A stretch of DNA of 64,000 nucleotides, from assembly GCF_988243305.1 (NCBI RefSeq), contig NZ_OZ547136.1. One strand, given 5' to 3'. Of this stretch, positions 101 to 290 are shown piece after piece. Within the stretch, counting starts at the first letter, position 1. Every line of letters starts with the position of its first letter. Position numbers and translations under genes: made by a program. Under the pieces are notes generated by a model. The model was given only the letters and a program-made list of their open reading frames with translations. It was not told the origin of the DNA and did no database searches.

Positions 101-290
101 GCCTGATGCGACGCTGCCGCGTCTTATCAGGCCTACAAATCCGAACCGTAGGTTGGATAAGGCGTTCACGCCGCATCCGACAAACAGCGCCTGATGCGAC
201 GCTGCCGCGTCTTATCAGGCCTACAAATCCGAACCGTAGGTCGGATAAGGCGTTCACGCCGCATCCGACAAACAGCGCCTGATGCGACGT
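101..290. repeat. REP/BIME cluster: two near-identical ~88-bp units (101-188, 189-276) plus a partial third, each with a palindromic GCCTGATGCGACGCTGCCGCGTCTTATCAGGCCTAC-type REP
   Basis: Direct reading: the motif gcctgatgcgacgctgccgcgtcttatcaggcctacaaatccgaaccgtagg..ggataaggcgttcacgccgcatccgacaaacagc occurs twice in tandem and starts a third time at 277. Classic enterobacterial REP sequence. Confidence 0.8.

Follow-up and report, generated by a model that had tools for sequence, protein, structure and literature searches.

The genes cpsG and cpsB, coding for phosphomannomutase and mannose-1-phosphate guanylyltransferase, lie side by side at one end of the DNA analysed here (64,000 nucleotides of contig NZ_OZ547136.1, called the window below) and belong to the colanic-acid (cps/wca) operon, which is transcribed from the minus strand. 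The window opens with the reverse complement of ATGAAAAAAT, with the cpsG start at 8-10, and the only long ORF adjoining the intergenic region is cpsB (291-1736, minus strand). Both names are those of the RefSeq annotation of matching E. coli loci. Tandem Repeats Finder reports a single array at 101-289 (period 88, 2.1 copies, 99% matches, 0 indels, score 371), which is extragenic, between the cpsB stop and the cpsG start. It is made of two full 88-bp units, 101-188 and 189-276, that are 99% identical (87/88) in the repeat search, the sole mismatch being T154 in the first unit against C242 in the second. A partial third copy, the initial 13 nt of the unit (GCCTGATGCGACG), follows at 277-289, and a single base, T290, separates this stub from the cpsB stop codon (TTA on the plus strand, 291-293). 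An earlier note, made from the letters of the sequence, had described tandem 88-bp units at this place, each with an inverted pair of REP palindromes, and a partial third copy beside the cpsB stop codon; location, periodicity and partial copy are all as it gave them, and each unit does contain two inverted palindromes with CTAC/GTAG feet. The features of the junction are as follows.

1-10, minus strand: 5' end of cpsG (phosphomannomutase), ATG at 8-10, from the RefSeq annotation of matching loci
15-64, minus strand: algC RNA motif (Rfam RF02929), candidate cis-regulatory leader of cpsG, which bounds the array spacer; cmscan score 77.3 bits (gathering threshold 33.8)
81-100: left flank ACCGCGGTTTCGCATTCATT; by allele comparison, confined to the REP-bearing lineage, with other sequence in its place in the REP-free allele
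101-136, minus strand: Y REP no. 1, GTAG form on the minus strand (mRNA sense); RNA hairpin of -20.5 kcal/mol
137-147: head-to-head short linker AAATCCGAACC, 11 nt, strain-polymorphic
148-181, plus strand: Z-type REP no. 1 (GTAGGTTGGATAAGGCG TTCA CGCCGCATCCGAC), T154 variant; subtype as in the K-12 sucB-sucC BIME-2
182-188: tail-to-tail linker AAACAGC, 7 nt
189-224, minus strand: Y REP no. 2
225-235: head-to-head 11-nt linker, second copy
236-269, plus strand: Z-type REP no. 2 (GTAGGTCGG...); RNA hairpin of -19.2 kcal/mol
270-276: tail-to-tail 7-nt linker, second copy
277-289, minus strand: Y REP truncated to a single 13-nt arm, which is all that K-12 retains of the array
248-298, minus strand: predicted alternative mRNA hairpin starting at the cpsB stop codon, formed by the half-Y and the last cpsB codons with the 5' arm of Z REP no. 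2; -28.7 kcal/mol (ViennaRNA)
291-1736, minus strand: cpsB (mannose-1-phosphate guanylyltransferase), 481 aa, stop TAA at 291-293, from ORF and annotation

Read on the plus strand, the Y REP is GCCTGATGCGACGC-TGCC-GCGTCTTATCAGGCCTAC (36 nt) and the inverted Z-type REP is GTAGGT(T/C)GGATAAGGCG-TTCA-CGCCGCATCCGAC (34 nt). In the mRNA, the cpsB UAA is followed by an A, the half-Y arm, the 7-nt linker, Z (iREP), the 11-nt linker and Y (GTAG), and then by the unit again; beyond the second unit come a 36-nt spacer, the algC motif and the cpsG start. The algC motif, which immediately precedes the cpsG start codon, is also conserved in the Enterobacter loci L013-L017 described below.

A second, coding repeat is found within cpsB, where a 9-bp sequence (GCCGCCAGC) is repeated in frame 3.2 times at 1423-1451. 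The CpsB protein of the window has 481 aa, compared with 478 aa in CFSAN064036 and, by RefSeq annotation, in other strains, among them K-12, and it carries one extra Ala-Leu-Ala in the repeat run. Elsewhere in the window, Rfam searches gave SIB RNA, the antitoxin component of Ibs/Sib toxin-antitoxin pairs, in three tandem copies (30448-30596, 30783-30925 and 31111-31253, plus strand, about 142 to 146 bits each), and RNA-OUT, the IS10 antisense RNA (63885-63954, plus strand, 99.5 bits), whose position at the extreme end of the window implies an IS10/Tn10-type element. The CyaR sRNA (44603-44688, plus strand, 100.7 bits) and a TPP riboswitch (60866-60962, minus strand, 71.8 bits) are ordinary E. 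coli features.

REP palindromes and assignment to BIME-2

REP sequences of E. coli are imperfect palindromes of about 30 to 40 nt with a conserved GTAG foot, CTAC on the other strand (PMC3333891), and an AA/GC mismatch is a feature of their stems (PMC8266576). The array holds four full REP copies, each with a stem arm of 13-14 nt, a 4-nt loop and the GTAG/CTAC foot, and the mismatch of AA opposite GC is present in GATAAGGCG...CGCCGCATC and in GATAAGACGC...GCGTCGCATC. The 13-mer of the REP arm (GCCKGATGCGRCG, at most one mismatch) occurs 13 times in the window compared with 0.53 expected by chance, and further REP arms lie at 10648, 12477, 16936, 19729-19749, 23834, 42528 and 52981. Arm enrichment elsewhere in E. 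coli genomes and GTAG-footed palindromes, the two tests named for REP identity, are both present.

REPs are grouped into BIMEs of two main classes (Ton-Hoang et al., PMC3333891). In BIME-1 one y/z1 pair stands alone and has a long L linker, often with an IHF site, while BIME-2 consists of y/z2 pairs with a short S linker in tandem, the number of which differs between loci and strains. The array has the short linkers (11 nt and 7 nt) and the tandem copies (2.1) of BIME-2, and Y and Z REPs alternate in inverse orientation; the "z2" label was assigned by likeness to a BIME-2 taken as reference and not from the original y/z1/z2 consensus tables. For this assignment of z1 or z2 we used the K-12 sucB-sucC spacer, an array treated as BIME-2 by Sutormin et al. 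2018 (PMC6379681), as an empirical reference. That spacer reads Y, 12 nt, GTAGGTCGGATAAGGCG-CAAG-CGCCGCATCCGAC, 7 nt, Y, and so has the same architecture and Z subtype as the cps array; the head-to-head linker is 11 nt in cps and 12 nt in sucB-sucC, and the tail linker is 7 nt in both. The sucB-sucC unit shares 73 of 90 aligned positions with the cps unit, the differences being confined to loops and linkers, and the units at trmJ-iscR and yabI-thiQ are identical to the cps unit at 77/91 and 81/93 positions. These three E. coli BIME-2 arrays resemble the cps array in their inverse alternating Y/Z-type REPs of nearly identical sequence, in a tandem period of 88 to 92 bp and in differing between strains in the number of copies. 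In the cps array, locus-specific sequence is confined to the loops and linkers, and unlike the others it ends in a truncated Y arm one base away from the stop of the upstream gene.

A BIME-1 (RIB/RIP) likewise pairs a Y REP with an inverted Z-type REP, but it is single-copy and has a long L linker with an IHF site. The IHF consensus WATCAANNNNTTR is absent from 101-290, and its only copy in the whole window is at 27155. The short linkers, the tandem copies and the missing consensus rule out the BIME-1/IHF reading, and with it the IHF binding that the earlier note had listed among the possible activities of the array. The other activities in that list, mRNA stabilisation, attenuation and gyrase binding, are known from BIME-2 arrays elsewhere (PMC6379681; bioRxiv 10.64898/2026.03.23.713779). 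We regard its membership of the BIME-2 class as virtually certain.

Unit number at the cpsB-cpsG junction

The first 700 nt of the window (1-700) were used as a query against 5,426 complete E. coli genomes. It matched 5,425 of them, and the REPs brought the median number of matching places to 11 per genome. In 3,300 of the 5,426 genomes (61%) there was a place that covered 80% or more of the query, an extent that needs at least one full unit. Two systematic samples were taken down the match ranking (40 and 60 rows), giving 84 informative rows; the number of units was read from the span of each record, and representative loci were verified by sequence. The following shares are estimates from these 84 sampled rows and carry over the strong lineage bias of the collection.

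One unit: 50/84 rows, about 60%
Two units, the window's type: 7/84 rows, about 8%
Three units: 2/84 rows, about 2%
Stub only (13-nt half-Y, 104-nt spacer; K-12 MG1655 and ST131): 14/84 rows, about 17%
REP-free 101-nt spacer with TAG stop: 10/84 rows, about 12%
128-nt allele: 1/84 rows, about 1%

The intergenic region was 101, 104, 128, 192, 280 or 368 nt long, and in about 13% of the sampled chromosomes the junction was unmatched at megablast sensitivity. The 128-nt allele consists of one Z REP and the half-Y and corresponds to the one-unit allele less 64 bp, deleted between GGT(T) microhomologies. With 0, 1, 2 and 3 units all found at the junction, copy number does differ between strains, as had been expected from the behaviour of such arrays. 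Because complete genomes assembled independently of one another repeatedly show alleles of two and three units, an assembly artefact is ruled out as their source. A separate match in strain IH5 (L010/H75; NZ_CP168949.1, 5148194-5153709), with a manC fragment and one BIME unit near an ABC-transporter gene, is surrounded by truncated, unrelated pseudogene fragments (flagellar, AIDA, ABC permease, gmd); it looked like a copy of manC with a BIME, and we set it aside, considering this scrambled pseudogene run a probable misassembly.

Eight two-unit alleles were compared, that of the window and those of seven genomes, and they comprise five different unit haplotypes. The variation sits in the linkers, AAA[T/C/A]CCG and A[AA/GC]CA[G/T]C, and the REPs are constant. 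The exact allele of the window is absent among the 5,426 complete genomes. The closest flanks (3 differences in 612 bp) are those of strain EC291, which has one unit, identical to the second unit of the window; in other two-unit alleles the first unit is diverged. The two-unit allele of the window appears to have arisen recently from a one-unit allele of the EC291 kind. This pattern of haplotypes and flanks suggests that units have been gained and lost recently and repeatedly, as described for BIME-2 (PMC3333891), and we are confident that copy number changes recurrently at this junction. MG1655 carries the stub-only allele. A half-Y cannot arise without a full Y, and the K-12 stub is therefore best read as a deletion product, the last unit having presumably been lost between 13-nt direct repeats.

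Polymorphism at this place has been seen before: cpsG-cpsB is one of the intergenic regions for which Iguchi et al. 2011 (PMC3158064) recorded REP insertions or deletions between O157 strains. Their study counted REPs at the same locus in a few O157 strains, while here an allele spectrum was sampled from 5,426 genomes. The same authors found a REP in the wcaA-wzc spacer to be conserved in all their strains (PMC3158064).

The junction in REP-free alleles and in Enterobacter

An example of the REP-free allele is found in E. coli TUM14759 (locus L004, 301-451), which has the 101-nt spacer and a TAG stop as in Enterobacter. A different 32-nt filler (CGGAGAATTAATCCGGTTGATTATTCAACTGC, plus strand) stands in place of the sequence of the BIME lineage, and the alleles with and without REPs differ over a stretch that runs from base 3 of the stop codon (TAA or TAG) to 12 nt before the conserved leader. 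An outgroup scan of genome contigs with the exact pattern of the algC motif retrieved five Enterobacter loci only, with no E. coli or nearest relatives among them. In all five, cpsB ends in TAG and is followed by a single REP of Enterobacter type (GCCCGGTGGCGCTGCGCTTACCGGGCCTAC) and then by the algC motif. The stretch from the cpsB stop to the algC motif seems to be a permissive site, occupied in each genus by a REP type of its own. The array is clearly dispensable in nature, as about 17% of the sampled genomes keep only 13 nt of it and about 12% are REP-free.

Predicted structure of the cps transcript

Folded as mRNA, the array reaches -130.7 kcal/mol (z = -6.7 compared with shuffled sequence), and the plus strand likewise folds better than shuffled sequence (z = -7.2). 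The individual REP hairpins are predicted at about -19 to -20 kcal/mol. Sites resembling a terminator, that is, a G+C-rich hairpin with a T run, number 0 in 1-600 on either strand, and no promoter-like site was found in 1-600; an intrinsic terminator and an internal promoter are thereby ruled out within these limits.

The ViennaRNA minimum free energy predictions suggest a second fold at the cpsB stop codon. In every allele that bears a Z REP, the predicted partner of the half-Y (ACGUCGCAUC, starting 1 nt downstream of the UAA) is the 5' arm of the first Z REP, and the last codons of cpsB would extend this hybrid helix by pairing of GGGUGU with ACGCCU. The hybrid hairpin is calculated at -28.7 kcal/mol compared with -19.2 kcal/mol for the canonical Z hairpin. 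Averaged over nt +1 to +15, the probability of being paired is 0.88-0.91 in Z-bearing alleles, 0.74 in K-12 and 0.55 for the REP-free allele. Counted from the cpsB stop codon (UAA), the first complete REP hairpin of the canonical kind begins at 21 nt. In the 0-unit allele of K-12, the leftover half-Y with its flank (UCAGGCAAUG) is predicted to pair with AUUGCCUGA of the algC motif.

At the other end of the operon, the leader of cps/wca contains a JUMPstart element (14638-14676, minus strand, 57.3 bits), and the cps operon has been described as using RfaH antitermination (PMC9976346).

Discussion

We interpret the cpsB-cpsG junction as a canonical BIME-2 array, two units and a truncated Y arm, whose units are gained and lost by slippage and which acts on the cps mRNA, a reading to which we give a probability of roughly 0.6. 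The array would belong to the genome-wide population of REPs and BIMEs, and its units would come and go through slippage or unequal recombination between direct repeats, possibly with the help of TnpA-REP. By analogy with arrays studied elsewhere, it would be transcribed within the cps mRNA, where the four REP hairpins and the predicted hybrid hairpin at the cpsB stop may block 3'-to-5' exonucleases and stabilise the cpsB-proximal mRNA. The hairpins may also partly attenuate read-through into cpsG, tilting expression to the upstream gene, and both the protection of cpsB and the damping of cpsG would be greater with more units.

The model for these effects is the REP325 array between yjdM and yjdN, which has experimental support as a stabiliser of upstream mRNA and as a partly Rho-dependent attenuator. 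Its deletion raises the downstream yjdN about 8- to 10-fold, the attenuation being partly Rho-dependent, and lowers the upstream yjdM mRNA; furthermore, the array yields a ladder of hairpin-ended RNAs, and genome-wide the ratio of upstream to downstream expression is raised in REP-containing tandem gene pairs (bioRxiv 10.64898/2026.03.23.713779). Like the cps array, REP325 is a BIME-2-type array between two co-transcribed genes, and Rfam RF02564, the model built on a REP pair of REP325, matches the cps array above threshold. REP325 differs in having 12 hairpins, compared with four and a half in cps, and its tail linker exceeds that of cps by 6 nt in the Rfam alignment. The behaviour of REP325 and the genome-wide ratios lead us to expect protection on the cpsB side and some damping of cpsG. 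On the other hand, the cps operon, unlike REP325, has a JUMPstart/RfaH leader that may override attenuation; with this leader and RfaH antitermination, Rho-dependent attenuation at the BIME should be weakened. REP effects have also been found to depend strongly on context, and terminal REPs generally do not lengthen mRNA half-lives (bioRxiv 10.64898/2026.03.23.713779). A measurable effect of the array on the expression of cpsB or cpsG is a real possibility, to which we would give somewhat less than an even chance.

At the level of DNA, gyrase cleavage is enriched in BIME-2, mainly at Y REPs and independently of transcription (PMC6379681). By the same analogy, the Y REPs of the cps array would be preferred gyrase cleavage sites, and cleavage there is probable.

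A different view of the array is that it consists of near-neutral, selfish or slippage-prone REP doublets in a spacer that tolerates insertions, expanding and contracting through replication slippage or TnpA-REP activity, and that it has no selected role in cps expression. The free variation at the junction, from 0 to 3 units together with the 64-bp microhomology deletion and the REP-free allele, is what this view expects, as is the absence of the array from major lineages including K-12. The concentration of variation in the linkers, with canonical REPs, would also follow if the propagation rules of the family itself keep the REPs intact (PMC3333891), and the other, genus-specific REP at the Enterobacter junction suggests a permissive site over a specific function. 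However, about 61% of the complete genomes (3,300/5,426) keep at least one unit, and other BIME-2 arrays inside operons measurably affect neighbouring genes (bioRxiv 10.64898/2026.03.23.713779). This view is itself compatible with side effects on mRNA. We consider it a serious alternative, though less likely than not, that the array is near-neutral and without a selected role.

The canonical BIME-2 reading can be carried further, to the speculative proposal that unit number is a heritable and quickly mutable dial on the CpsB:CpsG ratio, and hence on the supply of GDP-mannose for colanic acid. Three effects would combine in it: the stop-codon hybrid hairpin, predicted only where there is at least one Z REP; mRNA protection and attenuation scaling with the number of units; and, in the 0-unit allele of K-12, modelled base-pairing between the half-Y thus set free and the conserved algC leader of cpsG. 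We think such a dial improbable.

Still less probable is a role of the array in lowering cpsB translation, in which structure at the stop codon would stall terminating ribosomes and lead to tmRNA-linked loss of CpsB. According to Liang et al. 2015, in the summary given by PMC12306157, translation of a gene is reduced when a REP lies less than 16 nt from its stop codon, and the half-Y/Z hybrid hairpin predicted in every Z-bearing allele, at -28.7 kcal/mol, does start at +1. The first full REP hairpin, however, lies at 21 nt, beyond the reported limit of 15 nt, so that only the hybrid would qualify, and this hairpin is a thermodynamic prediction that has to compete with the canonical Z hairpin; for these reasons we give the idea a low probability.

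The suggestion that the locus contains a separate small-RNA gene of the naRNA4 type, a nucleoid-associated RNA acting with HU to condense DNA, is hardly credible and was rejected: the Rfam match to RF02564 (naRNA4) at 151-221 on the plus strand is real (cmscan score 72.7 bits, gathering threshold 59.5; weaker matches occur in other registers and on both strands), but the model, built on the Z+Y REP pair of REP325, is generic and any BIME-2 will match it, the best match is antisense to the operon, no promoter-like site is found in 1-600, and the function of naRNA4 has itself been questioned (Harris et al. 2026, bioRxiv 10.64898/2026.03.23.713779).

The cps array is, in summary, a textbook BIME-2 array at a junction whose polymorphism is already in the literature. 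What is new is the spectrum of E. coli alleles, the 13-nt stub of K-12, the different REP at the Enterobacter junction and the fact that the array lies right next to the algC-motif leader; these points leave the classification as BIME-2 unchanged. K-12 is not representative of the species at this junction, because it has kept only 13 nt of the array. The length polymorphism bears on PCR and typing assays and on short-read assembly across cpsB-cpsG. Furthermore, the natural series of alleles may offer a ready-made test set for the model in which REPs are both stabilisers and attenuators of the mRNA.
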